Virus record (IMG/VR): IMGVR_UViG_3300042484_002041
Coordinates: 103,585 to 167,584 of that record
DNA from: a virus
Direction: 5' to 3' (one strand)
DNA length: 64,000 nt
Part shown: positions 1 to 48,199 of the stretch, piece by piece
How positions within the stretch are numbered: the first letter of the stretch is position 1
Layout of the letters: the number at the start of each line of letters is the position of its first letter
The notes under the pieces: model-generated
Databases searched by the model: none
The model's input: the letters and a program-made list of their open reading frames with translations, nothing else
What the model was told of the DNA's origin: nothing
Translations under genes and position numbers: made by a program

Positions 1-850
1 ATTTTGATTTTAAATAGCTGCCATTGGTTTGTATGATGTGACGGATGTTGCTTTTTTTCTGTCCGATAATGTAGTCAATCAACTCGACATAAACTTGACT
101 GATAAACAATTCTCCGCCGGCCCATCGAATCTCTACAGGTTGATCTTTAATCTCATCAATAACTAGACGCTTGATCTTTTCAACAATGCCATTGTTAATT
201 TTTCGTATGTACAAGTGTTTGTTGTTGTTGATCAAGGCAGGTCTACAACTGGGACACTTGAAGTTGCAGGTATGATCAAAATCAAATATCAAGTTACTGG
301 GTACTTGTGAAAGCATTATGCTGCGACTGTCGACCGACTCCAGTGGTGCTGTATCGTCAGACGCTGCTACTGCTATTGGGTTAATGCTAAAGAACCTGCA
401 TAGATTATTGTTGCAATACAGATACCTACCGGCTAGTATTTCCTGACGTATGTCTTTGGCAGTCTGAGAATTTAAAATATCATAAATTGAATCAACTGCA
501 TTTATATTGCCGGCGAACTTTGGCAGCCAGGCAGGACTCTGACAGATGAATACGTCCCCGTATGAATTAATGCCCAGGGTTTCCCATGGTGCACGGCAGT
601 GGGCAACGGTAGCAGGTACTTTTTTATTAAAAAACACCTGTCCTTGCATGCGTCTGTTACCGTCGGCAATTTGGTTACCTTTGTTTAGCTGTTGATATTC
701 TTTGTATCTGCTGTCTACCGCAGTGCTAATACGTTGTTGTACAGCAGGATCAGAGGATCCTTTCCCATGTACTACTTCCCAAAATTCCGGCCAGCCTGGC
801 TCGGCTAGGGCTTGATATTCAGCTTCGTTTATGAAGTCATTTAATTTCAT
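1..850 (-). CDS. Radical SAM protein with N-terminal twitch/SPASM-like domain (3' end runs off the window)
   Basis: Not in the ORF track; translated by hand from ATG 850 (ATGA overlap with the upstream gene): MKLNDFINEAEY...HCRAPWETLGINSYGDVFICQSPAWLP...YCNNNLC...FDHTCNFKCPSCR...WAGGELF...QTNG. Contains CxxxCxxC and GGE motifs. Confidence 0.9.
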   Translation of the reverse strand, partial: MKLNDFINEAEYQALAEPGWPEFWEVVHGKGSSDPAVQQRISTAVDSRYKEYQQLNKGNQIADGNRRMQGQVFFNKKVPATVAHCRAPWETLGINSYGDVFICQSPAWLPKFAGNINAVDSIYDILNSQTAKDIRQEILAGRYLYCNNNLCRFFSINPIAVAASDDTAPLESVDSRSIMLSQVPSNLIFDFDHTCNFKCPSCRPALINNNKHLYIRKINNGIVEKIKRLVIDEIKDQPVEIRWAGGELFISQVYVELIDYIIGQKKSNIRHIIQTNGSYLKSK

Positions 851-1548
851 AATGATGTCAAAAAAGACTGTTGGGTGTAATTTATAAAATCAGCATTTTT
901 ATCGGCTAGCCAGACTTTAGCTAATTCAAATTCGTCAGCAAAGGTAAATGGCACGCGCCACTTTTTTATTAAACAAATTGCATGGCACCAGGCCAGCCAG
1001 GGTACATTATTTGATAGGTCTAAGTCTACTAGTGCCCAGGACGTATTCTTAAAATTTTCTATAGCTGCAGAAACAAACACTGTGTTTGGTTGATACTGTA
1101 CATGATGATGATCTAAAAAATTAAACACTTGCTGGGAAAAAAGCTCTTGATTCAGAAACATCTGATCTGCGTCAATAACTTGGTAATCATAATATTCGCG
1201 CTGTATCAACTTGTCTTTGTTCATTCTCCAACAGGCATTATCAGATAACAAAAAAAATACTTCAAGCTCTGATGAACTGTTATGCTGTGGCGTTCTACTA
1301 TACCATTTATAATAGGAGTTTAAGTATGCAATAAATTGGGATTTGATTCCAACAAAAGATCCAGCAATATCAGTATCAGAAAAAACATTAGCATGTCCGA
1401 CACGAAAATTACCGGTCCTTGGGTGTAGATTAAATTCGTTGTGTGGCGGCTGCTGGATTTCAAATTGACCAGTTTCAAGTCCGTAGAACAAATTGGCTAA
1501 CCAATGACCGCCTTGGCCATTGGGGTAAATCACCGCTGGCTTTGTCAT
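847..1548 (-). CDS. Hypothetical protein, possible degenerate sulfotransferase/P-loop fold
   Basis: 233 aa, overlaps both neighbours by 4 nt. N-terminal VIYPNGQGGHWL resembles the sulfotransferase 5'-PSB loop (YPKSGTTWL type). Confidence 0.6.
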   Translation of the reverse strand: MTKPAVIYPNGQGGHWLANLFYGLETGQFEIQQPPHNEFNLHPRTGNFRVGHANVFSDTDIAGSFVGIKSQFIAYLNSYYKWYSRTPQHNSSSELEVFFLLSDNACWRMNKDKLIQREYYDYQVIDADQMFLNQELFSQQVFNFLDHHHVQYQPNTVFVSAAIENFKNTSWALVDLDLSNNVPWLAWCHAICLIKKWRVPFTFADEFELAKVWLADKNADFINYTQQSFLTSL

Positions 1549-2804
1549 TTTAATTCTACTAACTCTGGAATTATATCTAACATATTTTCATTCCTTATGC
1601 TGTCGAGTTCATGTGTTTTGCGCCAGAATGTATCTATTAGATGCGTGTTGTCAGTGGCCATCATGAATGTGATTGCAGATTCAAATCCCTGGGTAGCTCG
1701 TTGCAATGGGTCTTGATCACGTAGCCAAACCAAATGCTCACGATACCGGGACTCAATTCGCTGTTTGTATTCCGTAGTAGCAATATCGATTCGATAGTGT
1801 TCTGGATCCTGTAGAATATTTACATTTAAATCCTGCGCTTTTAATAGACCTTTTGCAACCCAATCACGGTGAAAATCTGGCAAGTGCAAGGCATTCATTA
1901 TGCTTACAGTAGGACTAATATAGAAATCCACCTCAGGGCACATGTTGAGCATGTCTTTGCGATTTTGCTCTACTTGGGCCCACACAGTGCCCTTGCGTAT
2001 ATATTCACCATACCTGTACATGCCGTCTAAGCTGGCACCTACTGACACTGATTTGAACTGTTTCCAGTATTCAAATACTGACTTGCCCTTTAAATCCGTA
2101 TGCGTAAAGTTTGTATTATAAATCAACCGCACATCAAAACGGCCGCGCTTGACAAGTTCATTTAGAATGTTATAGTGCTCTTCCATGAGCAAGGGCTCGC
2201 CTCCGGCAAAGTAAATCTGCTCTACATAGTCCAAGTGCGGTTCTAACTGCGTCCACATGTCTGTGGGCGTACGGCCTGCAATATTCAGCACTGTGTTGTG
2301 TTTTTTCCAGTCTCCTCCAGCAAGCTTGGCTTGATCCTGGTACCACTGACTAGAGAAGATGTGCCCGCAACTACGACAACGCAGGTTACATAGGTTGCTG
2401 AATCGAATATCCCAGTAGGTCAGTTCAAAAGGATTTGATTCCAGTTTTTTGATCTGATGCCCGTGATGTTTATTAGCTGACCGCCGGCCTGAAAAGAAGC
2501 CGGCTGCTTCTTGTTCGTAGCAGCGTGTACAGGCTGAATTCTTGCGCTCGTTTAGCATGTCATCTCGCAGGAGTTGCAGAGGTTCGCCTTGCCAGATTTC
2601 TTCAAGTGTTTGAGTGCGGCAATTGCCCACAACTCCGGGTTTCATCTCAGCATGGCAACAAGGATAAGCTTCGCCAGTGGGATAGGCATGTAAGTGCACC
2701 CAAGGATAGATACAAAAAGTTTTAGATTCTTTGAGTAAGAATTCTTCGCGGCTTGTTAATTCAGTGGGCCGTACTAAATCACTGCTACTATAGTTGTATG
2801 ACAT
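1545..2804 (-). CDS. Twitch-domain radical SAM protein
   Basis: FCIYPWVHL...AYPCC...CTRCY N-terminal Fe-S domain; CNLRCRSC; FAGGEP; YNTN. Confidence 0.93.
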   Translation of the reverse strand: MSYNYSSSDLVRPTELTSREEFLLKESKTFCIYPWVHLHAYPTGEAYPCCHAEMKPGVVGNCRTQTLEEIWQGEPLQLLRDDMLNERKNSACTRCYEQEAAGFFSGRRSANKHHGHQIKKLESNPFELTYWDIRFSNLCNLRCRSCGHIFSSQWYQDQAKLAGGDWKKHNTVLNIAGRTPTDMWTQLEPHLDYVEQIYFAGGEPLLMEEHYNILNELVKRGRFDVRLIYNTNFTHTDLKGKSVFEYWKQFKSVSVGASLDGMYRYGEYIRKGTVWAQVEQNRKDMLNMCPEVDFYISPTVSIMNALHLPDFHRDWVAKGLLKAQDLNVNILQDPEHYRIDIATTEYKQRIESRYREHLVWLRDQDPLQRATQGFESAITFMMATDNTHLIDTFWRKTHELDSIRNENMLDIIPELVELK

Positions 2805-3511
2805 TATGTTCTAGGTTGATAAAGTTTAAGCCAGTGGCTTGATATGACATTTTGCAGATTAGAATTGACATCATGATCAAACACGCCCGGAGACAAAAAT
2901 ACAAATTCTGGAAATTGTATAAGATATTGAGTTATATCACTGTGCAATTGGTTTTCTTCATGGGGATCAGCTCTAAACATAATAAACTGACTGCTAGTGC
3001 TTCTACACTTCCATACTATTTGATTAACCCAGTTAGTAAATAAATCAAAATCATCTACCCACCCCAATTGCAGCACTAGGTTTATATTTCTAGTGTCAAT
3101 GGTCATAACTTTTTGATACAGTTGTTTATTACTTTTTACATTGTACACAGTGTGCAGTCCTGTGGGTTCGAAATGTTTAACAACATAACACCAGGCTTGC
3201 TGCGATTGTATGATCACGGGTTGATAGTTTTTTGCATGGCTGCACAGTGCATAGCTCTGATCATAGGATTCTGAATGTTGGTAAGTATCAATACTTTGAT
3301 CTAATAGTATTATCAAATCAAAACAATGTTCTACTGATCTTACAAAATCCACAGACACTGTTCCAACATCAGTATAATAACATCCATTTTTTATTTCAGT
3401 ATCTTCTGTCAACAGTCCATTCAGAGTAACTGCATACTTCTGTGCAATCAAGGCGCTGCGGTCAGCTGTATCCTCGGTACTGTTACCTATACAAAGAATT
3501 AATGATGCCAT
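2804..3511 (-). CDS. Hypothetical protein
   Basis: 235-aa ORF tightly coupled in the operon; no motif recognised. Confidence 0.65.
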   Translation of the reverse strand: MASLILCIGNSTEDTADRSALIAQKYAVTLNGLLTEDTEIKNGCYYTDVGTVSVDFVRSVEHCFDLIILLDQSIDTYQHSESYDQSYALCSHAKNYQPVIIQSQQAWCYVVKHFEPTGLHTVYNVKSNKQLYQKVMTIDTRNINLVLQLGWVDDFDLFTNWVNQIVWKCRSTSSQFIMFRADPHEENQLHSDITQYLIQFPEFVFLSPGVFDHDVNSNLQNVISSHWLKLYQPRT

Positions 3512-4131
3512 ACAAGATTACTTTCTCGGGCCCACGACTGCCATAACTGTTCAACAAGAGTCATGTCCAGGTGCAGGTTCAACTGTTGATTTAACTTTTC
3601 AATCTCTTGCATATAGCTATCTTGTTTTAAAAAAGTTAAAAATGGAATAGTGCATGATATATCCCTAAACTGATGTTGTAGTTGTCTTAACTGGGCAAGC
3701 TCACTAACAAAATTCAGAGTGTATTTTTTAGTTTCTTGATTATTAGATAAAAATTCCTGCTGTGTAGAGTCAACATCTATAAAAATAACATGCTGATAAA
3801 ATGTATCCCCCCATAGTGCGTTGGATTCCAATAACTGTGCAAATTCCACTGGGTGCCACCAGTCTATCAGCCAAAGATCGCTTTGTTCATAATGAAGAAA
3901 GTCTACTTTTCCTAGTTTATAACTCAAATAATCTTTTGCTTCTTCTTTTTTCCAATTATTAGCGTCCCATACAACATAACGATTGAATTTTTCGTGTGCT
4001 GATAATTTTTTTTTATATTCTTCTAGATCTACACAATTTGTACCAGTGATTGTTTTTTCAGAGAGGGTTAAAGTTTTGTATAACATACTACCGCCAGAAC
4101 CTGGTAAAAATACAATTGTAGCTTTCAACAT
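3499..4131 (-). CDS. Hypothetical protein, possible sulfotransferase-like P-loop fold
   Basis: N-terminal IVFLPGSGGSMLYKTL; coupled in the operon. Confidence 0.6.
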   Translation of the reverse strand: MLKATIVFLPGSGGSMLYKTLTLSEKTITGTNCVDLEEYKKKLSAHEKFNRYVVWDANNWKKEEAKDYLSYKLGKVDFLHYEQSDLWLIDWWHPVEFAQLLESNALWGDTFYQHVIFIDVDSTQQEFLSNNQETKKYTLNFVSELAQLRQLQHQFRDISCTIPFLTFLKQDSYMQEIEKLNQQLNLHLDMTLVEQLWQSWARESNLVWHH

Positions 4132-5468
4132 TATAGTGTGTTATACCAGTCTGCTAGGGCAGGAAACGTGCCGACAAAGTCTTTGCCGCGACGTTGATCG
4201 TATTGTGTGTAAAACTGTTTGAAGTCATTTAATAGTTTGGGACTATCAAACGCTTCACTGTGCGGTGTCTCTACAACCTCTAAGTAATCAATTAGCCGCT
4301 GTACTTGATTGATCTCGTGCTCGTGCAGCCAGGGGTTGCTGCGGTGGCGATACATCCAGTCCTGTAGCCGAACACAGTAACGGTCACGCAGCTCATCACT
4401 TAGTACCAAAGGACTTTGAAAGCTGGGGAAGCGCAGTATGTTCACGCTAAAGTTCACACGGCTGCGTCCGTATATCTGCTTGAACTCTAGTAGCTGGTGC
4501 AACAGGTCTGTAAAGCTGTCCAAGCAAAGTGCATTAATAGTGCACATGACATGCACGGCCTTGACAGTGTTGGACTCTAGTAGGGCACACACATTCTCGC
4601 GCCATTCTTCATAGTCCAGGCCATCACGTATGTACTCGGCCTGCGCGGCCACGGCTTCTATGCTGGTGTACAACTCCACGTGCGGCAAAGGACAAATGGC
4701 TTCGATAAATTCTTTCACCTTGGCCAGCGGGAATCCCAGGTTGCTGTTGATTGCTAGCTTGGTAGTGGACTTGCCTTGATTCTCTTTGAACCATTCAATC
4801 AGCTTCCAGGTGTAGCCAGACATCAGGGGCTCGCCGCCTGTGATCCTTAGTTCTTGTAGGGTGGCGTGTAGGTCTGTTTCCCACCACTTGAAGAACGCAT
4901 CCACATACGGATTGACTTGATTAAACGTGTAAAGTTGAGCGCTATCGTGAGCGTGAGTAAAGTGGTTACGCCCATCAGACACCAGGTCGGTATAAGGGCC
5001 ATGCTTTTTAATGTCATTAACCCATGTACTACTGAAAGCAGGGTTGCAATAACTACAAGCGAACTGACAAGTTCGATCAAACGCAATCTCCAGGGTCTTG
5101 AGGTTAACGTCTTCGGTATATGGGATGGCAGTGGCAGCATGTAGATCCTTAATGGGGTAGATTTTTGATTTGTACACACGGTCGCTGATGGCATCGCGGC
5201 CCATGTCTTCAATCTTCCAGCAGTACTCACACCCGGTGGGGCGCTCTCCTGCTAGCATTTTTTTGCGATCGTCCTTTTTCTGGGGCGTGTTGTGCAAGGC
5301 ACTGGGGCGGGCAGTGACTTCCTCCGGACTCACTCCATGTGCAGGCGGGTGGTGACAGCTGGTTGTTTGGCCGCTGCCTAACCATATGGTGGCATTGTAC
5401 CACTTGGCTGCACAGAAACTGCTACTGATGGGGTCAAGGACTTCTTGACGAAAGGTTAAATCATTCAC
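4131..5468 (-). CDS. Twitch-domain radical SAM protein
   Basis: FCAAKW...SCHHPPAH...CEYCW; CQFACSYC; ITGGEP. Start placed at GTG 5468, overlapping the upstream stop; the ORF track extends to 5534 with a 74-nt overlap. Confidence 0.9.
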   Translation of the reverse strand: MNDLTFRQEVLDPISSSFCAAKWYNATIWLGSGQTTSCHHPPAHGVSPEEVTARPSALHNTPQKKDDRKKMLAGERPTGCEYCWKIEDMGRDAISDRVYKSKIYPIKDLHAATAIPYTEDVNLKTLEIAFDRTCQFACSYCNPAFSSTWVNDIKKHGPYTDLVSDGRNHFTHAHDSAQLYTFNQVNPYVDAFFKWWETDLHATLQELRITGGEPLMSGYTWKLIEWFKENQGKSTTKLAINSNLGFPLAKVKEFIEAICPLPHVELYTSIEAVAAQAEYIRDGLDYEEWRENVCALLESNTVKAVHVMCTINALCLDSFTDLLHQLLEFKQIYGRSRVNFSVNILRFPSFQSPLVLSDELRDRYCVRLQDWMYRHRSNPWLHEHEINQVQRLIDYLEVVETPHSEAFDSPKLLNDFKQFYTQYDQRRGKDFVGTFPALADWYNTL

Positions 5469-6597
5469 GATGTTGGTTGATAAAGTTGAAAAACTTAGTA
5501 GGGAATTCAGATCGAATTCCTGGCACCATTTCAATCAAGTGCTGCTGGTTGTATTTACAAACTTCCCGTGCAGCAGCTAAGAAACTAGACAAGCTATTAT
5601 TACATAAATCTCCCACAATGTCAATGATTCTATCCATACGGTCCTGATGATTAGCTATACTATCAAAGCTTTCATCAATCAAATGGCCAAATGTTTTAAA
5701 CCCTAGGTTTCGAATATCACGATAAAATCCCGGGCTAGTGGCACAGATCCAAGGGTGACCCATGACCAACTCCTTGGCTATCTTCTCTGTGCGAAAGCTG
5801 TAAGGATAATCAAACACTGTTTCTGTTACCAAACTAAAGTATGTGTCACGGTATACTTCAGGAACAAGATAAATCTCGCCCCAAAGTCCATTAAATAGTG
5901 CATTCTTAACAAATGGCTGTTCTGAATTAGGCTGAATCTTGTTACCTCGGAATTGGGCAACTTCATACTCAGTCGGCAGGCATTGTATAGGTGTAGAAGT
6001 AGTCATTAGATCAATGCCAGACTGGGTCAATCTAAAATGTCGACTGGCTGTAGGTCTGCTATCTAGTATAGTCCATAAGCTGCGATCTAGTAATCCCCGG
6101 CGGTTAAGCTGTTCCCAGATGTATTTTCTATGAGGTCTGGCTCGGCCATTTAAGAAAAGGAAATCATAAGGCTTGTCCACGTGAGTGTAGATTTCCTCAC
6201 TGCGTTTCATTGCTGCCACATTCTCGTCGTAGTCTAGGATCTTTTCTAAAAAATGATCATGCAGTATATAAGGATACTTAGAGTCTAAGTCGCTGCCGCT
6301 GATCAGTAGTACCTTATGGTCAAGTATGAGCTGTTCTAATCCGATTCCTCGCAGCTGACTAACTAGCGGTTCTGAGCCTTCGGCAGAGTTACCAAATATC
6401 ATTATGTACTGCGGGTCCTGGGCCATTGCACAGAACTTTTCTCGATTGTCTAAGTACTGCCGTCGGCCTAGTACGTAGATGGAATCGGGGACCGGAGTAT
6501 GGCTAGCAAAGTCCCAAAACTCGTGTGTGCGCCAGGGCAGTAAAATATTGTAGACTTCACTGAATGTGTCGATTACTAAGTTACGTCTGTTGAGCAT
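5461..6597 (-). CDS. Putative GT-B glycosyltransferase (GT10/fucosyltransferase-like)
   Basis: FLFLNGRARPHR and FSLVTET...FRTEKIAKELVMGHPWI...GFKTF...DESFD, similar to the alpha-1,3-fucosyltransferase F-x-L-x-x-E-N...TEK...P motif. Confidence 0.65.
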   Translation of the reverse strand: MLNRRNLVIDTFSEVYNILLPWRTHEFWDFASHTPVPDSIYVLGRRQYLDNREKFCAMAQDPQYIMIFGNSAEGSEPLVSQLRGIGLEQLILDHKVLLISGSDLDSKYPYILHDHFLEKILDYDENVAAMKRSEEIYTHVDKPYDFLFLNGRARPHRKYIWEQLNRRGLLDRSLWTILDSRPTASRHFRLTQSGIDLMTTSTPIQCLPTEYEVAQFRGNKIQPNSEQPFVKNALFNGLWGEIYLVPEVYRDTYFSLVTETVFDYPYSFRTEKIAKELVMGHPWICATSPGFYRDIRNLGFKTFGHLIDESFDSIANHQDRMDRIIDIVGDLCNNSLSSFLAAAREVCKYNQQHLIEMVPGIRSEFPTKFFNFINQHRE

Positions 6598-7318
6598 GGC
6601 GTTCTACTATCCCTAGAATTCTTTTAGCTAGCAACTGAAAACAATGCCTGGCTGGATGACAGTTGTCAGGAAAGTTTGCGCTGCGTTTGGCAAAGTCTTC
6701 GATTCGTATCTGTTGATCCAGTTGGTCCAAGTGATCAATAATGTATTGTCTTTGACTCAGTTGGTAGTGATCTAAGATACGCTGTATTTTTTCAAAAGAA
6801 AAAAATGTATTAATTGGAGTGTTAATTCCTCCCAGTAGCTCACTGAGCCAATTTGGGATTACATGCCTGGCAAAGGAAAAATTTACAATACTGGATCCAA
6901 CTGGACTTTGCCCGCCAACTACAACAAACGGAATGTTGTATTCTTCACTAATCATCTGTGCGTATTTGTAGTTTTGATGATTAATATATGCTAAACTAGA
7001 ATCAAACTTAGTTATATCAAACTCAGGAAACTGTATGGCTGCTTCCTCAGGATCATCGATGATGATTTCTTGAATGTCTCTAAAGGATTCTGTATGGAAC
7101 CAGACAGCATAATCGTACTGATGATCTTGTTTTAGTGTCCAATACGCATGTCTTAATTGCCCAAAGTTTCCGGCGCTGCCAGCTGATATGTTGGTGACAC
7201 TGTGCCCAAACTCTCTGAGATAATGATCTAGGCCTGTGCCGGGAACAGGCTCAAAGAAATGAGTCTTGTTGGTCCATTCTCCCACACCCCAGCTGTCACC
7301 TAATATAAAAAATCGCAT
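6581..7318 (-). CDS. SGNH/GDSL-like hydrolase or acyltransferase
   Basis: FILGDSW block I; SAGSAGN; C-terminal DNCHP (D-x-x-H-P). Confidence 0.75.
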   Translation of the reverse strand: MRFFILGDSWGVGEWTNKTHFFEPVPGTGLDHYLREFGHSVTNISAGSAGNFGQLRHAYWTLKQDHQYDYAVWFHTESFRDIQEIIIDDPEEAAIQFPEFDITKFDSSLAYINHQNYKYAQMISEEYNIPFVVVGGQSPVGSSIVNFSFARHVIPNWLSELLGGINTPINTFFSFEKIQRILDHYQLSQRQYIIDHLDQLDQQIRIEDFAKRSANFPDNCHPARHCFQLLAKRILGIVERHAQQT

Positions 7319-7320
7319 TA

Positions 7321-8391
7321 CTACCCAAATACATTATTAATTTTATATTGTTGCTCTTGCGCAAATTCCCAAAACCGTTGTTCGTTGTGCTTGAGGTCTG
7401 GCAACATATCGGTATACATCTGTTTGATTTGCTGTTTGGAAAGCCTGGTTAAAAACTTTATCACAGATACGATTGAATCGTGTATTTGGTGTTCTGGAAT
7501 ATCCTCTAGTTCGATACCATCAAACCAGTGCGTAAATGTTCGGAATCCATTGTCTCTTAGATACCGATAAATCTTTGTTTGGCCGTTTAGTATAAAAGGT
7601 CTCAATCCTAGTATGGGCTTCCATGTTTTCTCAGTGACAAACATATTGTCCCAGGGAAAGAATTCAGATTCGCAGACTATATTTAAAAAATGTGTTTGCC
7701 AGATATCCAGACGCCCTAGACTCAGTAAGTCGTACGGGATCCCTCCAAAATTGTTATGCACCAGGAATCTATTATTATAACTGTAGTCCTGGGCATTTTC
7801 TTCTACTGTCAAATACAAGTCTGTTTTTAGTCCCTGGCTAACATCGTAATCAACATCATTCTTGCCCAGGGTTACAATGCCAAACTGTTCTAGCTTATTA
7901 GAGTATATTTTTTCAACCAACTCAATTCGGTGCGGCTTTGGTTTTCTATTATAGCAAAGGTAGTAGTTATCTACTTCAGTAAGTAGGATCTGATCCTGGC
8001 TGTATCTGATAAAATCTTCTGCCGTTATAGTCGATGAAAAATTAAATGCAAACTCCGACTGCTCAAAGCCCCCAATATAATAGGCTTGTTTTACTTGTAG
8101 ATTCTTTTCAATCTCTGTTATTTGAGCAGGCAGTAGGAATATTGGTTCAGTAGATGCCATCCAAAATAAATTATCAAATTGTACTTTATCTTTGATCAAT
8201 TTGATAACATTATTGTATATACTGTTGTTATTTCCAAACTGTGGCCCGAACCAGGTCAGGTTGATCAGTAGGTTCGATTCGTCTTTGAATCTAGAACTAA
8301 TTTGATCTTGTATATTTTTAACTAACATGTGTTCTTGCGGTCCCCATTGCTCTTGTGGAGAAACCGCAGTGCCTATATAAGTTACAGTCAT
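7321..8391 (-). CDS. Putative GT-B glycosyltransferase (GT10-like), paralog of 5461-6597
   Basis: YLCYNRKPKPHR; FLNIVCES...FVTEKTWKPILGLRPFILNG...GFRTF. Confidence 0.65.
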   Translation of the reverse strand: MTVTYIGTAVSPQEQWGPQEHMLVKNIQDQISSRFKDESNLLINLTWFGPQFGNNNSIYNNVIKLIKDKVQFDNLFWMASTEPIFLLPAQITEIEKNLQVKQAYYIGGFEQSEFAFNFSSTITAEDFIRYSQDQILLTEVDNYYLCYNRKPKPHRIELVEKIYSNKLEQFGIVTLGKNDVDYDVSQGLKTDLYLTVEENAQDYSYNNRFLVHNNFGGIPYDLLSLGRLDIWQTHFLNIVCESEFFPWDNMFVTEKTWKPILGLRPFILNGQTKIYRYLRDNGFRTFTHWFDGIELEDIPEHQIHDSIVSVIKFLTRLSKQQIKQMYTDMLPDLKHNEQRFWEFAQEQQYKINNVFG

Positions 8392-9179: not shown

Positions 9180-10051
9180 GGCAATGACTCCAGGGTTAAT
9201 TTAATCCCTGTATTTAAGTTAACATTTTGCGTATACTCTATTTTTGATTTTAACAAGGATATATCTGGACATCGTCTGCTAACAGAACCTAGCGGTGCCG
9301 GATGTAACACCAGCCGGCCACTGACATTAAGATATGTTTTAATTAGATTTGCTACTGCCAGGATTGATATTTCTTCGTCAGAGCCAACATTGATTGGACC
9401 ATTGATCGGAGCGTCTAGTAACTTGATAGTTGCATCAATTGCATCAGTAATATAAAAAAACGATCTAGTGTTACTGTGTCCATGTAAATCTGTGTTACCC
9501 TGGCGCAATCTATTAGCAAACTCTGGAATAAAATGATCCACTTGCCCGGGACCATAAATGTTATGATATCTAATTATTGTAAAGGGTTGGCCGAACTGTT
9601 GATGGGCAGCAGCACACAACAGCTCAGATGCAATTTTAGATCCTCCATAACTCCACCGTGGATTTAATATGTCATTGACTGTCAGTGGCACTTGTTCATC
9701 AGTCGGTACCAAATATCCAAATGTATCAACACTGCCAGCATAAGATTCACAAGTACCGGTGAAGATAAAATGGTTACACTGATTCAGATACCGGTCCAGT
9801 AAGTACTGTGTCGGTAAAATATTGTTTGTAGCAACGTCCCAGGGGTTGGTATAAAAATACTTTGTACCATTGAACGCTGCGGCGTGAAATACGATATCAA
9901 CATCGGGTAGATTTTTAACAGTGGTTTGATCACATAAATCAATGCCAATTTTCTTATCAGCGCAATACACTGTATATCCATTCTTTTCAAGTGCTGTTAC
10001 CAAATAAGAACCAATAAATCCGCTGCTGCCCGTGACTAGTATTTTTTTCAC
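9176..10051 (-). CDS. NAD-dependent nucleotide-sugar epimerase/dehydratase/decarboxylase (extended SDR)
   Basis: ILVTGSSGFIG; FHAAA; PRWSYGGSK (YxxxK); RYHNIYGP; RSFFYITD. Confidence 0.92.
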   Translation of the reverse strand: MKKILVTGSSGFIGSYLVTALEKNGYTVYCADKKIGIDLCDQTTVKNLPDVDIVFHAAAFNGTKYFYTNPWDVATNNILPTQYLLDRYLNQCNHFIFTGTCESYAGSVDTFGYLVPTDEQVPLTVNDILNPRWSYGGSKIASELLCAAAHQQFGQPFTIIRYHNIYGPGQVDHFIPEFANRLRQGNTDLHGHSNTRSFFYITDAIDATIKLLDAPINGPINVGSDEEISILAVANLIKTYLNVSGRLVLHPAPLGSVSRRCPDISLLKSKIEYTQNVNLNTGIKLTLESLP

Positions 10052-11430
10052 TGTTTACTCCAGTACTCACATTCGGCCCACCAGGTGCGCATCTCGGGAA
10101 ATGTCTTCAAGAAATCTGTTCCTCTTCTGCGATCGTGCTCACTAAAGAATCGATAAAAGTCTGCACGAGCCTGAGAATGATTTTGCCCTAATCCACTACG
10201 CATCCAGGCAAGATCTCGATCTAGTCGAGCAACTTCGTAGTCCTTGAAACCTTTAAAAGGTAAGCTAGCGTTTTCTTTATTCTCTGACATCCAGGTATGC
10301 ACTTGATCTAATCTAGTAACATAGCTTTCGGGCAAGATCTGCAAGCTTTGCCAAGCAGGTTCGCGCAGCACAGGCGTGTCAAACCACACCCGTTGATAAG
10401 TTTCAGAATAACGATTGCGTAATTCTAATATGCCAGCAAACAAGGTTTCTAGACTAGGTATACTCAGGTTGTTCATTGTTATGATGAACGTTAAGCTGTT
10501 ATAGCTAGGGATTTCTGTGAGGAATTGATTTACCCTATCCCATAACAGATCAAAGTCTAGTCCGTGTCTGATGTATTCAGCCTGTGCACCCCATGCGTCC
10601 AAGCTCACGTACTGCATAAAGTGTTCGATACGACCGTCGCACAGTTGCTTAACGGATGACAAGTATTTCTGCCACAGCTTTTCTTCCACACTAAAGTTGC
10701 TAGTAACATTCAGGTGCAGTTTAGGGCTGGGGTTAGCAATCACATAGTCAAACACACGGTATGTGTTCTTGTCCATGAGTGGCTCGCCACCGGTCATTCT
10801 AAAGTGTTCCAGCTGCGGGTATAACTCGGGCCACCAGGCCCAGAACGCATCCACATACGGATTGTCTTCACGGACAGGGATAACACGCCTTGACCCTGTA
10901 AAGTGGTCAGGTGCATTGTGTGGTGTTTTAGTAGGATAGGCACCGTGCTGGTCAACTTCGGCTTGCCAACTACTACTGAATTGCGGGCTACAGTAGCTGC
11001 ATTTCAAGTTGCAAGCATGATTAAAGTTGACTTCTACATAGCTAGGAATCACATCATCCTCGTTGCCGGTGCTGTTCTTTATCTTATCAAAGTCCAGGGA
11101 AGCCCAGGGTTCTCCACTACGGTAGTGTCTATCACTGAGCTTGCCTTGATCTTCCATGTTCCAACAGTACTGACATTCAACTGGTTTCTCCCCGCGCAGC
11201 ATCATCTGTCTCTGTGTTTTTTTGTGCGTGGTGTTATGCAGTGCAGACGGATTAAGTTTTATTTCAGCTGGGTCAATTTGATGCAACGGAGGGTGGTAAC
11301 AGCTATTATTCAATCCAGTGGGCAAGTGTAAACTGACTTGTTTCCATTTAGCTAGACATAGTGCAGGTCCAAGATCCTGTTTCATTTGTTCGGCTGAATT
11401 TAAAAATATGCTTTTGTTTGCTGCGGTCAT
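10048..11430 (-). CDS. Twitch-domain radical SAM protein, paralog of 4131-5468
   Basis: LCLAKW...SCYHPPLH...CQYCW; CNLKCSYC; MTGGEP. Confidence 0.92.
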   Translation of the reverse strand: MTAANKSIFLNSAEQMKQDLGPALCLAKWKQVSLHLPTGLNNSCYHPPLHQIDPAEIKLNPSALHNTTHKKTQRQMMLRGEKPVECQYCWNMEDQGKLSDRHYRSGEPWASLDFDKIKNSTGNEDDVIPSYVEVNFNHACNLKCSYCSPQFSSSWQAEVDQHGAYPTKTPHNAPDHFTGSRRVIPVREDNPYVDAFWAWWPELYPQLEHFRMTGGEPLMDKNTYRVFDYVIANPSPKLHLNVTSNFSVEEKLWQKYLSSVKQLCDGRIEHFMQYVSLDAWGAQAEYIRHGLDFDLLWDRVNQFLTEIPSYNSLTFIITMNNLSIPSLETLFAGILELRNRYSETYQRVWFDTPVLREPAWQSLQILPESYVTRLDQVHTWMSENKENASLPFKGFKDYEVARLDRDLAWMRSGLGQNHSQARADFYRFFSEHDRRRGTDFLKTFPEMRTWWAECEYWSKQ

Positions 11431-12374
11431 AATTGTGTTATTGTTGTTTGATAAGTGTGTTGTTGGAGCAAATTATAGTTGTGATCCAACGAGTACTGCA
11501 TATCCCAATACATTGCTTCTAGCTCAACTGTTGTTTTTTGTGATAGCATATCTATTAGATTGAAAATCTTTTTCAATCTGTCTCCGCTGGAGAATCCATC
11601 ATACTCTTCGTCCCAAAAATCATTGAACGTCCTAAATCCCATTTGTCGCAAGTATGCCAGGTAATCTTTAGATCCAAATATAATAAATGGTTTCTTTAAT
11701 AACATAGGTCTTACTGTTTTTTCTGTAGGGAAAAAAGTCCGGCCTGCGATATGAGATTCTACTACTATATCTACTAGCGTATGCTTATACATGCTAGTTA
11801 ATGGATCATCGTAGTGGTATCCTGCTGTGGCTGTATATCCCGCAGAACTATTTTGTAGCAGTGGTAAACGCGGTATCATCTCGCCGGCTGCCGAGGCTTG
11901 CTGTACATCATAGGTTAACAGCTTGTCTAATTCGAACTGTATTAAATTATTAGGATCAATCGTGGCAGAAAAATGTACTAGCGACTGATCGAAATAGTTT
12001 TTCCATACATAGCCAGCTAATCCTAGTCGCCCGGCCGTAGGTCTATGATAGAAACAAAGAAATCTCTTGCTTAAATCCCATGTGTGCAACTCTGGGTTTA
12101 TTTCATACGTATTTCGAATCCAAAAGTTAGGACCATTAAACTGTATATTATATTTCTGATGTTGTTCTAATGGATTCCATGTCTTAATACAAACAGACTC
12201 AAACTTAAACGCATCTAACAGTGTGTATACGCCTAGGTTTTCCAAACAAATTGCCTCGGGATCTAACTCTAACTCAATTGCTTGCCCCTGATGTTTCGTC
12301 AGAAACTGAATAAACTCAGTAAGGTTCCAGAAACGATCACTTGTAGCACTGATTACAAAACTAGGTGTTACCAT
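11427..12374 (-). CDS. Putative GT-B glycosyltransferase (GT10-like), third paralog
   Basis: FLCFYHRPTAGR; LVDIVVES...FPTEKTVRPMLLKKPFIIFG...GFRTF...DEEYD. Confidence 0.65.
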   Translation of the reverse strand: MVTPSFVISATSDRFWNLTEFIQFLTKHQGQAIELELDPEAICLENLGVYTLLDAFKFESVCIKTWNPLEQHQKYNIQFNGPNFWIRNTYEINPELHTWDLSKRFLCFYHRPTAGRLGLAGYVWKNYFDQSLVHFSATIDPNNLIQFELDKLLTYDVQQASAAGEMIPRLPLLQNSSAGYTATAGYHYDDPLTSMYKHTLVDIVVESHIAGRTFFPTEKTVRPMLLKKPFIIFGSKDYLAYLRQMGFRTFNDFWDEEYDGFSSGDRLKKIFNLIDMLSQKTTVELEAMYWDMQYSLDHNYNLLQQHTYQTTITQL

Positions 12375-13291
12375 CCCTCTTGCTGCCGTATAACATCAAT
12401 CTCTCGTACCATGACACCACGGCTGTGCCAGTTGCTGCGGTAGTGGTGCTTGAAGAATTTACTTTGATCCGCATCAAATAAATTGACCGGGAGTCCCAGT
12501 TGTGTATTAAGTGCTACAGCAGTGGAGGTGATCATGTGGTAGGCGCTTTGTTCCGAAACTTCATTCCAAATCTGTTCAAGGGCATCAAACGACTGTACTT
12601 CAGTATGGTCCCACTCACTTAGCATGGTCTTGAATGTACCTAATCTGGCGCCAGCAATGGCCCAGTTGCCGTGTTCAATATCCTGCCCGACGTTTTGCCA
12701 TACAGTAAGGTTGTCAAGGTTACGTTGGTGTACACGATCTCTGAACTCGCTTAGTGTGGGCTTGCGTCCTTTGTCCAGGCACATCTTAACACCTTCTCTA
12801 AACCCGGCGCGCCAGGCGTGCTGTGCTGATCCATTAGGGTATGTAGTAGAGAAGCAGTCATGCATGGACCAGTACAAGGGGTCAAAGCAAAACTCCACTT
12901 GTGTCTCTGTGCGCCCATCTGTAGCCTCATGGGTACGCATGTTTTGCACAAAGGTACGGGTCCAAGAACTCATGCCTCCATTGCCGTACATAAGGCCATT
13001 GACGTGATTTCGGGCGCGCCAACGGAACACTGCGTTTTGGTAATCCTCTGTGGGCAAGTCTAGAGTTTGATTAAAGAACGCAGGATCAGGCATGTTGTCG
13101 CCGTCGATCAGGATGAATCGTTCGGTATCACTTGCCTCTGCTGCTGCCTTGTGTGCTGCATCACTGCCCTTGACTCCGTCAACGCGGCGTGCCCAGGGTA
13201 CCATATTCCGAATCTTGATCCAGAACTCTTCCTTTTGTGGTTCATCATAGCTTAGATAAACTACATCTAACTCTGCTACATCAACTTTCAT
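12368..13291 (-). CDS. Putative GT-A glycosyltransferase (GT2-like)
   Basis: DVVYLSYDE; AAHKAAA...FILIDGDN (DxD motif); YGNGG; AWRAGFREG. Confidence 0.7.
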   Translation of the reverse strand: MKVDVAELDVVYLSYDEPQKEEFWIKIRNMVPWARRVDGVKGSDAAHKAAAEASDTERFILIDGDNMPDPAFFNQTLDLPTEDYQNAVFRWRARNHVNGLMYGNGGMSSWTRTFVQNMRTHEATDGRTETQVEFCFDPLYWSMHDCFSTTYPNGSAQHAWRAGFREGVKMCLDKGRKPTLSEFRDRVHQRNLDNLTVWQNVGQDIEHGNWAIAGARLGTFKTMLSEWDHTEVQSFDALEQIWNEVSEQSAYHMITSTAVALNTQLGLPVNLFDADQSKFFKHHYRSNWHSRGVMVREIDVIRQQEGW

Positions 13292-13634
13292 ATTTCTTTG
13301 TCCATTTGATATGCGGCGATAGGGCCGATACTACAATGCTAACATCACTAGGCGCACAAGGTGTGCCGTTCTCGGCGCCAGGAGTTAACTTAGCAAGTGC
13401 TGCGGTGCGAGCCGCTACTGTTACTAACTGTTGATCCACAACCCGCACATGATAAGATTGTGTTGCATAGGTAGCATGATCAATCTCAATATAGTTACCT
13501 GGCAAATCCTCCATGCTGTACACAATTGGCATGCCTGAATCATCATGATACAGTCTATAAAACACCGGAGGCGGTGCAGCACGATCCCAAGCTGCCCAAG
13601 CTGCCCAGAAGTTGTCTGTGGTTTCGTTACTCAT
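13281..13634 (-). CDS. Hypothetical protein
   Basis: Start placed at ATG 13634, which gives an ATGA overlap with the upstream stop; coupled in the operon. Confidence 0.7.
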   Translation of the reverse strand: MSNETTDNFWAAWAAWDRAAPPPVFYRLYHDDSGMPIVYSMEDLPGNYIEIDHATYATQSYHVRVVDQQLVTVAARTAALAKLTPGAENGTPCAPSDVSIVVSALSPHIKWTKKYES

Positions 13635-14401
13635 AACCAATTCTTAACATGATAGTGAAACATGCCCCATTGCGCAACTGTGTTAATTCGCACGCCAGGG
13701 TCGGTGTGTTCCCAGACCAGTTCCCGTGTCCAGTTGTCAGTCTGAATAGGATTTATATATCGTTTCATGTGCACAATCTGTGGGCCAACACCAGTAGGTA
13801 AAGTTACACGCTCGGGGCCCATGATTTGTGCAGCCATTGCGTATACAACGTCAGTTGTAGCAGCCTCGTCGGGGAACTTGAGTAAGGTACGATACTGAGC
13901 CCAGTTTTCAAATATTCGACGCACCCACTCAAAAAACTCTTGCGCGGTTGTGCTCAATCGCCAATAGGTTATGGCGTTGTATACATCAGGCAGGTTGTTG
14001 TCATCAAACAGCTTGCGGTAGCGGCGACTCGTAGCAGGCTGATCATAAAAATCTCTTGCGCCTTGACTAACAACAACATCACGATGTTCAAACAGTGTCC
14101 ACCAATGGTCGATAGGAGAAGCTGCGATCATGTCAGCTTCCAACTTGATAGTCTGACGGAATGGGCTGGCTCTAAACACTTGCCAGTCGTTGGCAAACCC
14201 GCCTAGATTACCAGACGGCAGTGTCCTCACAATGTCAAAGTCAGATTCCTCAACTGCTGAATCAGTTAACAAGCACACCCGAGCCTCGGGGTGCAGTTGG
14301 TGTATGCTACGGGCCAAGTGTCTAGCGCAATTTACATAGTCAACTGTGTCTGTATTGACTGCAGGGATTAAGTATCCACGTTCTTCAAGCATGGGCGACA
14401 A
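13631..14401 (-). CDS. Putative GT-A glycosyltransferase (GT8-like)
   Basis: GYLIPA...DYVNCARHLARSI...VCLLTD...SPFRQTIKLEADM; late HMK motif. Confidence 0.7.
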   Translation of the reverse strand: MSPMLEERGYLIPAVNTDTVDYVNCARHLARSIHQLHPEARVCLLTDSAVEESDFDIVRTLPSGNLGGFANDWQVFRASPFRQTIKLEADMIAASPIDHWWTLFEHRDVVVSQGARDFYDQPATSRRYRKLFDDNNLPDVYNAITYWRLSTTAQEFFEWVRRIFENWAQYRTLLKFPDEAATTDVVYAMAAQIMGPERVTLPTGVGPQIVHMKRYINPIQTDNWTRELVWEHTDPGVRINTVAQWGMFHYHVKNWL

Positions 14402-15182
14402 TGTTCATTAGAGTGCGCTTGCCCATGGCATGGAAGTCTTGGCCATTGAACTCTATCCACTTTCTCTGCGATTGCGCAGTCAGATAGTTGACCCTAAAAT
14501 GGTCGGTATCAGTCTGTACTAGTTCATGTTCAGGGGTCAAGCTAGCCAAGGGCCAGGCAATGTTGGGTTGGTGCAGTACATGCCCATTAACTATGTTAAG
14601 TGCTATGCTCAGTGCATGGTCGTTGCGGTAGGTGCTGCGCGGGTTTCCGTACAGGTTGCAGTAATGTTTCCAATTTTCTCGAACCATTTGCATACTTCCA
14701 AAAATTAACTCGGCTGTGGTGCTGCGTCTAAACATCATGACTGTAGCCCAATACATTGGCATACGATTGCGACCAAAGTAGTTTAGATCATTGAATGTTT
14801 GTAATCCTGTAACATCATATGCCAGTCGGTGACAGAGAAAATCTTGCTGCGTCTGCAATGTGTTCTCAAGTTGCGTGCTTGCAACTACATAGTCGGCATC
14901 TAGGACTAAGGTTTGATCCCAGGGTGTTATCTCGTATGCTGTGGTGCGGTTAGAGTTGTGCCATACAACATTGGTACCAAAATCAGTAAAGTGCCGTGTG
15001 CTTGATCCTTCTGGCACGGCGCGAATTACTTTGTCAAATGCATCTACGCGCTCTGTGCTGTCAGTTACTACTGCAACAGGAATATTCAAGTGACGGCGAA
15101 TCCGATTGGCAGACCAAGCAGCCATGGCCAAATAGTCAATTTCTGAATTGTTAAATGCAAAAATTAATGCACCAGTTGTCAT
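14385..15182 (-). CDS. Putative GT-A glycosyltransferase (GT8-like), paralog of 13631-14401
   Basis: GALIFA...DYLAMAAWSA...VAVVTD...TPWDQTLVLDADY; RND; HAMGK. Confidence 0.72.
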   Translation of the reverse strand: MTTGALIFAFNNSEIDYLAMAAWSANRIRRHLNIPVAVVTDSTERVDAFDKVIRAVPEGSSTRHFTDFGTNVVWHNSNRTTAYEITPWDQTLVLDADYVVASTQLENTLQTQQDFLCHRLAYDVTGLQTFNDLNYFGRNRMPMYWATVMMFRRSTTAELIFGSMQMVRENWKHYCNLYGNPRSTYRNDHALSIALNIVNGHVLHQPNIAWPLASLTPEHELVQTDTDHFRVNYLTAQSQRKWIEFNGQDFHAMGKRTLMNIVAHA

Positions 15183-15484
15183 CTCTGTTTGCTAACTTGT
15201 TCAAACTCCACTAACCATGCGTTCATTTGTTCTTGCCAGCGGCTGTAGGCCAGCAGTTGCAGATCTAAAGTGTTTACTCTTATTGGTGTGTTATACAGAT
15301 CTAGCAATACTACATCTTGTTCAGGGCAAGCCTGCAACAATGTTAGCAACTCTGGGCCAGCACGCCACATACCGCCGGCATGAGCAAACAGCATTTTGGC
15401 TGTGTACTTTTCGTTAAGTAACCGACGAGCAGACTCGTGGTCAAATCGTGCCCGTGAATGAGCGATAAGTTGATCTGTATCCAT
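15179..15484 (-). CDS. Hypothetical protein, first gene of the modification operon
   Basis: 101 aa; starts 9 nt after a consensus -10 box; ATGA overlap with the next gene. Confidence 0.75.
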   Translation of the reverse strand: MDTDQLIAHSRARFDHESARRLLNEKYTAKMLFAHAGGMWRAGPELLTLLQACPEQDVVLLDLYNTPIRVNTLDLQLLAYSRWQEQMNAWLVEFEQVSKQR

Positions 15485-15493
15485 ATAGCAACT

Positions 15494-15522
15494 ATTATAC
15501 AGAAATGCTAGACAAAAGTAAA
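15494..15522 (-). promoter_or_regulatory. Sigma70/T4-early-type promoter for the modification operon
   Basis: Minus strand TTTACT (15522-15517), 17-nt spacer, TATAAT (15499-15494), in the intergenic gap. Confidence 0.75.
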
Positions 15523-15537
15523 GTACTAAATTGTCCG

Positions 15538-16572
15538 TTACCCTTGGATTGCTTGTACTAGACCCACACCAAAACTTATTCGATTTTTAAATTCGTTATA
15601 TGTTTTCGTAAGGCATTCCATAGCAGCATTGTGCTCCAAATGCTCAACATTGCCAATAACATCATGATCGGCATAATTATCCCAAGAACCCCAATCTTCG
15701 AGTTTTGTGATCCCCCCAAAAAATCCGTAATCGACACATACTTGACAAAAATTTTGTATATCAAAGTAATTGTCGCGTTGGATTACAAGAGTTAAGGCAA
15801 CTGATATTTTGTTAGTCTGGGTTTGCTCTTTAAGGTAATCAAAGTTATCAAGTAATTGTTCCCATTTACCGCCGAGTCTAACTTTTTCATATACTTCTTT
15901 GCTACCGGCATCGATGCTGATTAGATATTCGGTGATACGATCACGTATGCTGCTGTCTGCAATTTGTTTTCTTATCAAGAGCCCGTTAGTAAACAGTTTT
16001 ATATGTTGATCTTTTTTAGGCTTAAATCGATGTATCAACGGACGTAGTATAGAACTAGCCAGAGGGTCGCCATTACCGCTCATGATAATTCTGCACGGAT
16101 GGTCAAAGTTTTCTAATAGTGTTACTAAATGATTAACCTGTACTAGTTTTATATCATAGTCAGGTCCACTTGTGATCATTTTTGCATCGCGTCTGCAACT
16201 AGGGCAACGAAGATTGCAGCTTTCATCTATGTTAATTGATATAGTGTAAATGGGCCGACTAATATTGCCATTGGTTATGCCGCAGCGCGAAACAGCACAG
16301 TGTGAGAATTTTTTACTTGCTATATCTTGCTGCAATTCTAACGCAGTAGGACTAGTCCATACTTGCTCTAATGTTGTAAAGTCTGTAATTTTACCCACAC
16401 TTATCGGTAACCATGCTTCGCACTCACAAATAAAACAATCACCTTTCCAATCCACTAGTAATGTTTTGTTAGGTATGTCACAGGAATGTGGTATGTCTAA
16501 CTGCAATTGTTTGTTTCGTGGGATTGCAGTATATGAAAATTGATTAGCAATTGGTATAACAAGAGTGGCCAT
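15538..16572 (-). CDS. Radical SAM protein with N-terminal twitch-like domain, paralog of 1-850
   Basis: CDIP...GDCFICECEAWLP...HCAVSRC; CNLRCPSCR; SGNGDPL; FTNG; SIDAG. Confidence 0.9.
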   Translation of the reverse strand: MATLVIPIANQFSYTAIPRNKQLQLDIPHSCDIPNKTLLVDWKGDCFICECEAWLPISVGKITDFTTLEQVWTSPTALELQQDIASKKFSHCAVSRCGITNGNISRPIYTISINIDESCNLRCPSCRRDAKMITSGPDYDIKLVQVNHLVTLLENFDHPCRIIMSGNGDPLASSILRPLIHRFKPKKDQHIKLFTNGLLIRKQIADSSIRDRITEYLISIDAGSKEVYEKVRLGGKWEQLLDNFDYLKEQTQTNKISVALTLVIQRDNYFDIQNFCQVCVDYGFFGGITKLEDWGSWDNYADHDVIGNVEHLEHNAAMECLTKTYNEFKNRISFGVGLVQAIQG

Positions 16573-16576
16573 TTAT

Positions 16577-16605
16577 AAGAAAGTAAAGGGCCAATAAGGC
16601 CCTTT
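16577..16605 (-). terminator. Intrinsic terminator after the fibre genes
   Basis: AAAGGGCC-ttatt-GGCCCTTT stem (16585-16605) followed on the minus strand by ACTTTCTT. Confidence 0.75.
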
Positions 16606-19026: not shown

Positions 19027-19034
19027 TATTTATA
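19027..19034 (-). promoter_or_regulatory. T4-type late promoter TATAAATA
   Basis: Exact T4 late consensus upstream of the fibre gene; a second CATAAATA lies at 19051-19058. Confidence 0.7.
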
Positions 19035-48186: not shown

Positions 48187-48199
48187 TACACACTTACAC

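Follow-up and report, generated by a model that had tools for sequence, protein, structure and literature searches.

The closest published description of a locus of the kind examined here was given by Zaragoza-Solas et al. (2020; PMC7029224) for the host recognition cluster (HRC) of pelagimyophages and cyanomyophages. The HRC is a hypervariable block beside the fiber genes of aquatic T4-like phages and contains glycosyltransferases, UDP-glucose dehydrogenase-type genes, and cassettes of radical S-adenosylmethionine (rSAM) enzymes; the rSAM cassettes were given neither a family assignment nor a mechanism in that study, which favored modification of the host O chain. We analyzed a gene island that resembles the HRC in these respects. 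It lies in IMG/VR virus record IMGVR_UViG_3300042484_002041, of which we examined positions 103,585 to 167,584 (64,000 nucleotides [nt]; referred to here as the window). Positions 1 to 16,572 of the window (the reported region) had been interpreted from the sequence alone as a complete pathway for a radical-tailored glycan (referred to here as the original prediction). Unlike the HRC, the island belongs to a jumbo phage (~345 kb) that is nearer to Ralstonia phage RsoM2USA, and it carries five conserved rSAM paralogs as well as carbamoyl- and amidinotransferases.

Two groups of characterized systems provide further points of comparison. Virus-encoded glycosylation of virions is represented by the capsid and tail-tube glycans of mycobacteriophages, the fibril clusters of Mimivirus, and PBCV-1, in which soluble enzymes encoded near the structural genes act in the cytoplasm. 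We know of no use of rSAM enzymes in these three systems. The island shares with them soluble transferases encoded beside structural genes, and it is known from its genes alone. The second group consists of the rSAM enzymes that modify sugars or sugar nucleotides (BtrN, DesII, and BlsE). DesII and BlsE differ from the island rSAMs in sequence (12 to 14% identity) and in the placement of the auxiliary domain, which is C-terminal in DesII and BlsE and N-terminal in the island proteins, and as structural matches they were tied with peptide-modifying enzymes. The amidinotransferase and the carbamoyltransferase, the division of the island into a skeleton and cassettes, the negative results for priming enzymes, and the minimal module in a cultured phage are new in this analysis.

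The island is a genuine, conserved, fiber-linked enzyme block. It spans ~31 kb (genome 89170-120156, i.e., window -14414 to 16572) and is cut by the window edge, such that the window shows about half of it and another 14.4 kb extends to genome 89170. Within the window, 18 minus-strand open reading frames (ORFs) run from 15484 down to 2, with junctions that overlap by 1 to 17 nt or leave a 2-nt gap; a single 74-nt overlap results from an upstream TTG start at 5534 (w4131 in Table 1), and the true start of that gene may lie downstream. An additional rSAM gene precedes this run across a 53-nt gap. Thus, the ORF map agreed with the predicted layout of 18 translationally coupled genes plus one upstream rSAM gene and showed that the genes are tightly coupled. 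Beyond the window, the minus-strand run continues for eight genes to genome 95744; a divergent plus-strand block (genome 91199-95760) and a gene for a 676-amino-acid (aa) protein (genome 89170-91200) come after it. Overall, the island encodes eight rSAMs, six predicted glycosyltransferases of a family that we call TEK, three to four proteins of the families A6 and A7, a short-chain dehydrogenase/reductase (SDR), a truncated dehydrogenase, a carbamoyltransferase, and an amidinotransferase.

The record (167,584 bp; rated 48% complete) ends with the window, which is its final 64 kb. Four close relatives (G001 to G004; the present genome is G000) are 342 to 353 kb (~345 kb) in length and at least 97% complete, and one of the close relatives bears terminal repeats and has a completeness rating of 100%. 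Because of the size of these relatives and the presence of baseplate markers just past the island (gp25, a gp6-like wedge, and a hub OB domain), the record is, on the basis of sequence, a fragment of an uncultured freshwater jumbo myovirus from a genome group of ~345 kb. Sequence comparison indicated a distant relationship of this group to RsoM2USA, and none of 50,697 phage records matched the region in a megablast search. The "Moraphages" (PMC12619734) are not T4-like and were for this reason discarded as a candidate lineage.

In all five genomes, a common skeleton directly follows the same three fiber/virion genes, and the cassettes differ. The skeleton consists of the 101-aa protein, two A6 proteins, a small protein, A7, an rSAM, a TEK protein, four rSAMs, a 365-aa protein, and the carbamoyltransferase, followed by a divergent block of two TEK proteins and the amidinotransferase. 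The cassettes of the present genome comprise an SDR/dehydrogenase/TEK/SGNH set, w847, w2804, w3499, and two extra rSAMs, and they are rare among the 82 related loci that we surveyed for orthologs. The position of w15538 also differs among the relatives (e.g., the G002 ortholog lies between A7 and the w10048-type rSAM), and a DegT aminotransferase gene adjoins the island in one relative.

The head of the island recurs in the same gene order, at 21 to 40% identity, in RsoM2USA (MG752970.1, 215949-223553), where a fiber-like protein (ORF355) is followed by ORF354, two A6 proteins (ORF353 and ORF352), ORF351, A7 (ORF350), an rSAM (ORF349), and an A7-like protein (ORF348), all annotated as hypothetical. 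This is the sole deposited phage record with an A7 homolog. The module differs from the island in that it has a single rSAM and lacks TEK proteins, the carbamoyltransferase, and the amidinotransferase. It sits in the structural region of the genome, and mass spectrometry has detected products of neighboring genes in virions (PMC8504454). Thus, the predicted adjacency of the island to tail-fiber genes proved correct, and the link is kept in the five related genomes and in RsoM2USA. No other observation speaks as strongly for a virion-related role as the persistence of this link in so distant a phage.

Five of the eight island rSAM genes are in the reported region. We scored all eight against the NCBIfam model NF033640 (N_Twi_rSAM, twitch domain-containing radical SAM protein), which has a curated cutoff of 170 bits. 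Six passed it (218 to 393 bits), namely, three in the reported region (Table 1) and three beyond the window (g101237, 320 bits; g99036, 284 bits; g94468, 218 bits). The remaining two (w2-850, 85 bits; w15538, 38 bits) are divergent members with the same architecture, and the five twitch-type rSAMs of the original prediction are therefore all retained. In each of the eight, a four-Cys SPASM/twitch segment lies N-terminal to an rSAM core with a CX3CX2C motif (Pfam, SPASM before Radical_SAM). By the numbering of w1545, C31, C49, and C95 are invariant, C92 is nearly so, and C139, C143, and C146 form the cluster motif; the rSAM architecture was thereby shown, at the level of the aligned residues, to have every cluster cysteine intact. 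Judging from the profile matches, the permuted, twitch-first arrangement is that of a catalogued family. The literature that we searched contained no paper that names NF033640 or assigns it a reaction.

Several further observations concern this family. Orthologs of w10048 in three relatives (G002:C1:165671-167620, G003:C1:50294-52222, and G004:C1:250347-252296) are 642 to 649 aa long compared with 460 aa here, implying an additional predicted N-terminal domain of ~190 aa or a fusion. Four metagenomic proteins (P0121-P0124; 794 to 817 aa) appear to be fusions of two N_Twi units (644 bits with the family profile). Two more above-cutoff copies are present elsewhere in the genome, outside the island. 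One of these two, at window 49213-50778 (plus strand; 381 bits with NF033640; 521 aa), has an N-terminal extension of ~130 aa and lies between Mre11-like (48170-49216) and Rad50-like (51569-53332) genes, a DNA recombination context far from the island. A His-Xaa-Ser (HXS) rSAM system was also considered and rejected, as no frame of the island encodes a His-Xaa-Ser repeat precursor peptide; hidden Markov models (HMMs) of HxsB/HxsC matched the island rSAMs only at E values of 1e-3 to 8e-3.

The original prediction included three GT10-like and three GT-A glycosyltransferases. The GT10-like genes are part of a paralog family that has six members in the island and an invariant E...TEK..P...G..TF motif (i.e., the TEK family). 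The predicted structure of w5461 has a GT-B fold, and its structural matches were exclusively glycosyltransferases, with BGT/AGT matches tied with those of dozens of unrelated GT-B enzymes. On the basis of this model, the TEK proteins are probably GT-B glycosyltransferases of an unnamed family. The fold supports glycosyltransferase activity, and membership in GT10 was not established, given that the GT10 HMM (PF00852) had no match at E ≤ 10 in the whole genome. A TEK profile found nothing meaningful among PDB sequences, and we found no homolog among deposited phage genomes. Metagenomes contain >5300 homologs, and none of the best 120 listed has a Pfam domain or a name.

The GT-A trio divides into A6 (w13631 and w14385) and A7 (w12368 and also the C terminus of the 676-aa protein). 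We suspect a GT-A fold for A6 and a GT2-like/GT-A fold for A7 from sequence features: DGD and L(E/D)AD motifs are conserved in A7 and A6, respectively, and an Atlas neighbor cluster of A7 is named "Glycosyltransferase 2-like" (0.99). The assignment of all three as GT-A enzymes was not established. Deep profiles of A6 and A7 matched no PDB sequence, the best Pfam match was that of one member to Glycos_transf_2 (Table 1), and hhalign comparisons of A6, A12, and A7 with the GT8 enzymes WaaJ/WaaO of Escherichia coli gave nothing significant (E = 0.2 to 0.6; the GT-B enzymes WaaG/WaaB served as the control). A6 has >6900 homologs, none with a Pfam domain, and A7 comprises ~1500 clusters at 50% identity.

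Among the other enzymes, the SDR was confirmed by a full-length PF01370 match. The predicted UDP-sugar dehydrogenase retains the catalytic Cys motif (GGMCLPKD) in a central domain (66 bits) and has only part of the N-terminal domain and no C-terminal UDP-binding domain (Pfam), so that the three-domain form was not found; it aligns to residues 76 to 306 of the 450-aa chain 3gg2. The SGNH protein was supported at the level of motifs (GDS, residues 7 to 9; SAGN, 48 to 51; DNCH, 218 to 221) and not by any HMM. The two sulfotransferase-like proteins (w847 and w3499) were not established, as they have a P-loop-like N-terminal motif only and no sulfotransferase HMM match; a language model provided a lead for w3499, whose nearest named Atlas clusters (0.91; 121 to 145 shared features) are Sulfotransfer_1/3, Stf0, and DUF2972. 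A GDSL protein is encoded beyond the window, and the island as a whole has two to three SGNH-like proteins. The carbamoyltransferase scored 133 bits against the NodU equivalog (cutoff, 1000), which makes it a member of the family and not NodU itself. The catalytic Cys of the amidinotransferase is in GGISCCTQD, which aligns to GGFHCWTCD. A 339-aa ORF at window 55484-56503 (minus strand) has a faint C-terminal match to the arginine deiminase/amidinotransferase family (E = 0.0096) and may be a second amidinotransferase-like gene. Profiles of the families A9, A12, and A13 found nothing meaningful among PDB sequences.

Hydrophobic segments of transmembrane grade are absent from all island proteins, and all products are predicted to be soluble. 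In G000 and the four relatives, we detected no Bac_transf (PF02397), no WecA/MraY (PF00953), no member of the thymidylate synthase/hydroxymethylase family, and no match to the TGT/DpdA model PF01702; the predicted lack of a thymidylate synthase-like gene was thus corroborated and extended to four nearly complete genomes. The missing priming, WecA/MraY, and thymidylate synthase genes make it less likely that the phage carries out undecaprenyl-linked synthesis on its own or glycosylates its DNA at hydroxymethyl pyrimidines.

N_Twi genes are also found outside this phage group. Above-cutoff copies were present in 3 of 301 Bacteroidota genomes. One of these is a metagenome-assembled genome labeled Haliscomenobacter sp. 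EUL_031, in which two contigs (NZ_JBBAKG010000003.1 and NZ_JBBAKG010000001.1; 148 and 183 kb) carry the island, with five to six N_Twi rSAMs each at 78 to 80% identity. By appearance, these are phage contigs of the present group and reflect either mis-binning or a hint of a Bacteroidota host. In another Bacteroidota genome (G288), an N_Twi pair is accompanied by a carbamoyltransferase, GDSL proteins, and a weak GT11 match. A Bacteroidota chromosomal locus (G084:C2:1208500-1228400) encodes two divergent N_Twi rSAMs together with two PhyH dioxygenases, a WelO5-like iron/2-oxoglutarate enzyme, a methyltransferase, and an 842-aa secreted, fiber-like protein with Peptidase_S74 (endosialidase chaperone) and a type IX secretion system (T9SS) tail. 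Finally, the cultured, KVP40-like Vibrio phage K566 (OZ196521.1, 161548-168284) has four clustered N_Twi-like rSAMs, which lie among genes annotated as hypothetical, and no TEK, A6, or A7 gene nearby. Judging from gene content, both a glycan context and a fiber-protein context exist for N_Twi genes.

Our best explanation, which we put forward tentatively, is that the island serves the cytoplasmic assembly of a glycan and its tailoring by radical and group-transfer chemistry, probably on virion fiber proteins. Glycan building and tailoring, as originally predicted, best fits a soluble set of GT-B enzymes, an SDR, carbamoyl- and amidinotransferases, and SGNH-like proteins. In the cytoplasm, the transferases would assemble an oligosaccharide on an acceptor that is itself soluble; the still unassembled fiber or virion proteins of the phage are the likeliest candidates. 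Like DesII, BlsE, and BtrN, each rSAM paralog would perform radical chemistry on a sugar residue or nucleotide sugar (e.g., epimerization, oxidation, deoxygenation, or decarboxylation), after which carbamoyl, amidino, and acyl groups would be added. Turnover of cassettes would diversify the product, and such diversity is what one would expect of a structure exposed at the surface. A bolder version, possible but doubtful in our view, is that the N_Twi rSAMs constitute a new class of glycan-tailoring enzymes that work residue by residue on a fiber-borne oligosaccharide, yielding a hypervariable carbamoylated and amidinated virion coat that tunes adsorption or shields the fibers. If true, this would be the first rSAM-dependent glycoprotein pathway in any virus.

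Several points weigh against glycan tailoring on virion proteins. Of the grounds for a virion-protein target, the conserved fiber-gene link stands, and the Ser/Thr richness of the fibers is generic and not a specific sign of glycosylation; the analysis identified neither an acceptor protein nor a glycosylation site. No chemistry has been demonstrated for any N_Twi rSAM. In comparisons with the predicted structure of w1545, the sugar-acting BlsE and DesII were within 1 Z unit of the protein- or peptide-modifying anSME, CteB, SkfB, and SuiB, and this tie suggests that the evidence does not separate sugar from protein as the rSAM substrate. A6 and A7 matched no fold in profile, PDB, or hhalign searches. 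Given a truncated dehydrogenase and relatives that lack the SDR/dehydrogenase cassette, sugars must be supplied by the host or by other parts of the genome; with about half of the island in the window and no set of sugar-activating enzymes shown, the pathway could not be called complete. The rSAMs of phage K566, which lack the transferase families, indicate that N_Twi enzymes do not need such partners. To our knowledge, AGAT-type amidinotransferases are known from small-molecule pathways and not from glycoproteins.

We weighed four other explanations. One is that the rSAMs modify a fiber or attachment protein directly (epimerization, oxidation, or cross-links), with the transferases glycosylating it afterwards, so that the radical substrate is a protein and not a sugar. 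The constant position of the island after the fiber genes in five genomes would suit this, as would the peptide-modifying enzymes among the tied structural neighbors and the G084 pair, which is flanked by oxygenases, a methyltransferase, and the secreted S74/T9SS protein. We nevertheless consider it unlikely. The N terminus in the model is the twitch domain, with no RRE/PqqD-like leader-binding domain; the island has no His-Xaa-Ser or Cys-rich small precursor; and in G156 and G288 no S74 protein is near the N_Twi genes. Moreover, the fiber-like neighbors w16626 and w17631 are cysteine-free, so that chemistry of the thioether or formylglycine-from-Cys type is excluded for these two proteins. 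Remodeling of the host envelope (lipopolysaccharide [LPS], O antigen, or capsule), for example, to block superinfection, is improbable to a similar degree. It is the reading closest to that favored for the HRC, whose hypervariable regions have an abundance of glycosyltransferases and LPS-type genes (PMC7029224), and cassette variability fits surface diversification; against this, all island products are soluble, the five genomes lack PF02397 and PF00953, the island genes include no evident flippase, polymerase, or transporter, and the minimal module is kept beside fiber genes in RsoM2USA, a distant lytic soil phage.

Much less probable is a diffusible aminoglycoside-like or pseudo-oligosaccharide natural product. 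The StrB1/AGAT-type amidinotransferase, the TobZ/NodU-type carbamoyltransferase, the twitch rSAMs (a class that includes BtrN), and the glycosyltransferases do recall aminocyclitol pathways, as does the DegT aminotransferase encoded beside the island in one of the relatives, and a cyanophage amidinotransferase, aminotransferase, and rSAM have been grouped as "antibiotic synthesis genes" (PMC12801897). However, we saw no cyclitol synthase, exporter, or resistance gene; the island is within the virion structural module and covaries with fiber genes; and known aminoglycoside pathways make do with fewer enzymes than the six GT-B paralogs and eight rSAMs present here. Hypermodification of phage DNA with a glycan has the slimmest prospects of all. 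The BGT/AGT matches were tied with those of dozens of unrelated GT-B enzymes, neither G000 nor the four nearly complete relatives have a thymidylate synthase/hydroxymethylase gene, and the island is in the structural module and not in the replication module.

Table 1. Features of the island and its surroundings (window coordinates unless marked as genome; loci, number of the 82 related loci with an ortholog)
Name	Position	Strand	Feature	Remarks
w2-850	2..850	-	Divergent N-terminal-twitch rSAM, 5' part; variable cassette	Full gene, genome 103178-104434, 418 aa; SPASM residues 85-138, Radical_SAM 194-331 (Pfam); CNFKCPSC at residue 195; 2/82 loci (≥50% identity)
w847	847..1548	-	233-aa protein, N-terminal PNGQGG loop; variable cassette	No Pfam/NCBIfam match; 1/82 loci
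w1545	1545..2804	-	N_Twi rSAM; core skeleton	NF033640, 393 bits
w2804	2804..3511	-	235-aa protein; variable cassette	No family match; 2/82 loci
w3499	3499..4131	-	210-aa protein, LPGSGGS loop; variable cassette	No Pfam/NCBIfam match
w4131	4131..5534	-	N_Twi rSAM; core skeleton	NF033640, 308 bits, match from residue 37; 80/82 loci
w6581	6581..7318	-	SGNH-like protein; variable cassette	Motifs by eye; no Pfam/NCBIfam match; 2/82 loci
w8388	8388..9179	-	Truncated UDP-glucose/GDP-mannose dehydrogenase-like protein, 263 aa; variable cassette	0/82 loci
w9176	9176..10051	-	SDR, NAD-dependent nucleotide-sugar epimerase/dehydratase; variable cassette	PF01370, 135 bits, positions 1-240/240; PHROG 540, E = 1e-53
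w10048	10048..11430	-	N_Twi rSAM; core skeleton	NF033640, 326 bits; 35% identity to RsoM2USA ORF349
TRANSFERASES				Label over the candidate glycosyltransferase set (TEK, A6, and A7 families; next six rows)
w5461	5461..6597	-	Predicted TEK GT-B; skeleton-conserved position	Predicted fold
w7321	7321..8391	-	Predicted TEK GT-B paralog; variable cassette	BLASTP, family alignment, own HMM
w11427	11427..12374	-	Predicted TEK GT-B paralog	BLASTP, family alignment, own HMM
w12368	12368..13291	-	A7 protein, YDEP and DGD motifs	73/82 loci at ~70% identity; 40% to RsoM2USA ORF350
w13631	13631..14401	-	A6 protein, DxD-like LEAD/LDAD strand	Paralog of w14385; matched by RsoM2USA ORF352
w14385	14385..15182	-	A6 protein, second paralog	Weak Glycos_transf_2, E = 0.053; RsoM2USA ORF353, E = 2e-30
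w13281	13281..13640	-	Small conserved 119-aa protein	Orthologs at same position in 5/5 genomes
w15179	15179..15484	-	Small conserved 101-aa protein	First gene after fiber genes in relatives; same position in G001-G004; 57 loci at ~63% identity; weakly RsoM2USA ORF354
	15494-15522	-	Sigma-70-like consensus match, TTTACT-N17-TATAAT	In 53-nt gap; -10 ends 9 nt before ATG
w15538	15538..16572	-	Divergent N-terminal-twitch rSAM, 344 aa	SPASM 31-97, Radical_SAM 117-276, 49.5 bits (Pfam)
	16585-16605	-	Terminator-like hairpin after fiber gene	8-bp stem, 5 GC pairs, T-rich tail
w16626	16626..17621	-	Fiber-like protein, 331 aa, 29% Ser+Thr, no Cys	Immediate upstream neighbor of island
w17631	17631..19001	-	Virion structural protein, tail pin/fiber type, no Cys	tblastn to PA5oct, Atu_ph07, Phosso
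	19825-34293	-	4822-aa ORF	FG-GAP repeat match; between gp6-like wedge gene and fiber genes
	genome 95744-97225	-	NodU/TobZ-type carbamoyltransferase	Carbam_trans_N and Carbam_trans_C, 125 and 167 bits (E = 3e-49, 5e-36)
	genome 93449-94471	plus-strand block	AGAT/StrB1-type amidinotransferase	AGAT 8.7e-19, StrB1 2.4e-13, also HsvA, SxtG (profile vs PDB)

Of the genes on the fiber side of the island, w16626 is conserved in G001-G004 and has weak similarity to RsoM2USA ORF355. The PA5oct matches of w17631 are annotated as "virion structural protein" and "baseplate wedge subunit and tail pin", and w17631 also has a weak Peptidase_G2 IMC domain. The 4822-aa ORF occupies the position of the 2541-aa ORF361 of RsoM2USA, a product confirmed in virions.

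Regarding transcription, the original prediction placed the 18 genes behind one promoter. The TTTACT-N17-TATAAT site is present (15522-15494), but sigma-70-like matches numbered 55 compared with 45.9 ± 6.9 expected from shuffled sequence, so that the site is a chance-level match and a one-promoter operon is unsupported. The T4 late-promoter motif TATAAATA was not enriched in the window (2 sites; 3.4 expected) and gives no expression timing. An exact copy of TATAAATA at window 19027-19034 (minus strand), 25 nt upstream of the start of w17631, is the only site that precedes a gene near the island.

The gene families of the island extend well beyond this phage group. N_Twi rSAM homologs saturated a search of 8000 candidates, and N_Twi, TEK, A6, and A7 are all very large families of no known function that recur beside the fiber genes of abundant aquatic jumbo phages. 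The minimal module of RsoM2USA makes a puzzle known from metagenomes testable at the bench. If the product of the island is a virion glycan, radical chemistry would be added to virus glycobiology, with a bearing on host recognition and defense evasion.

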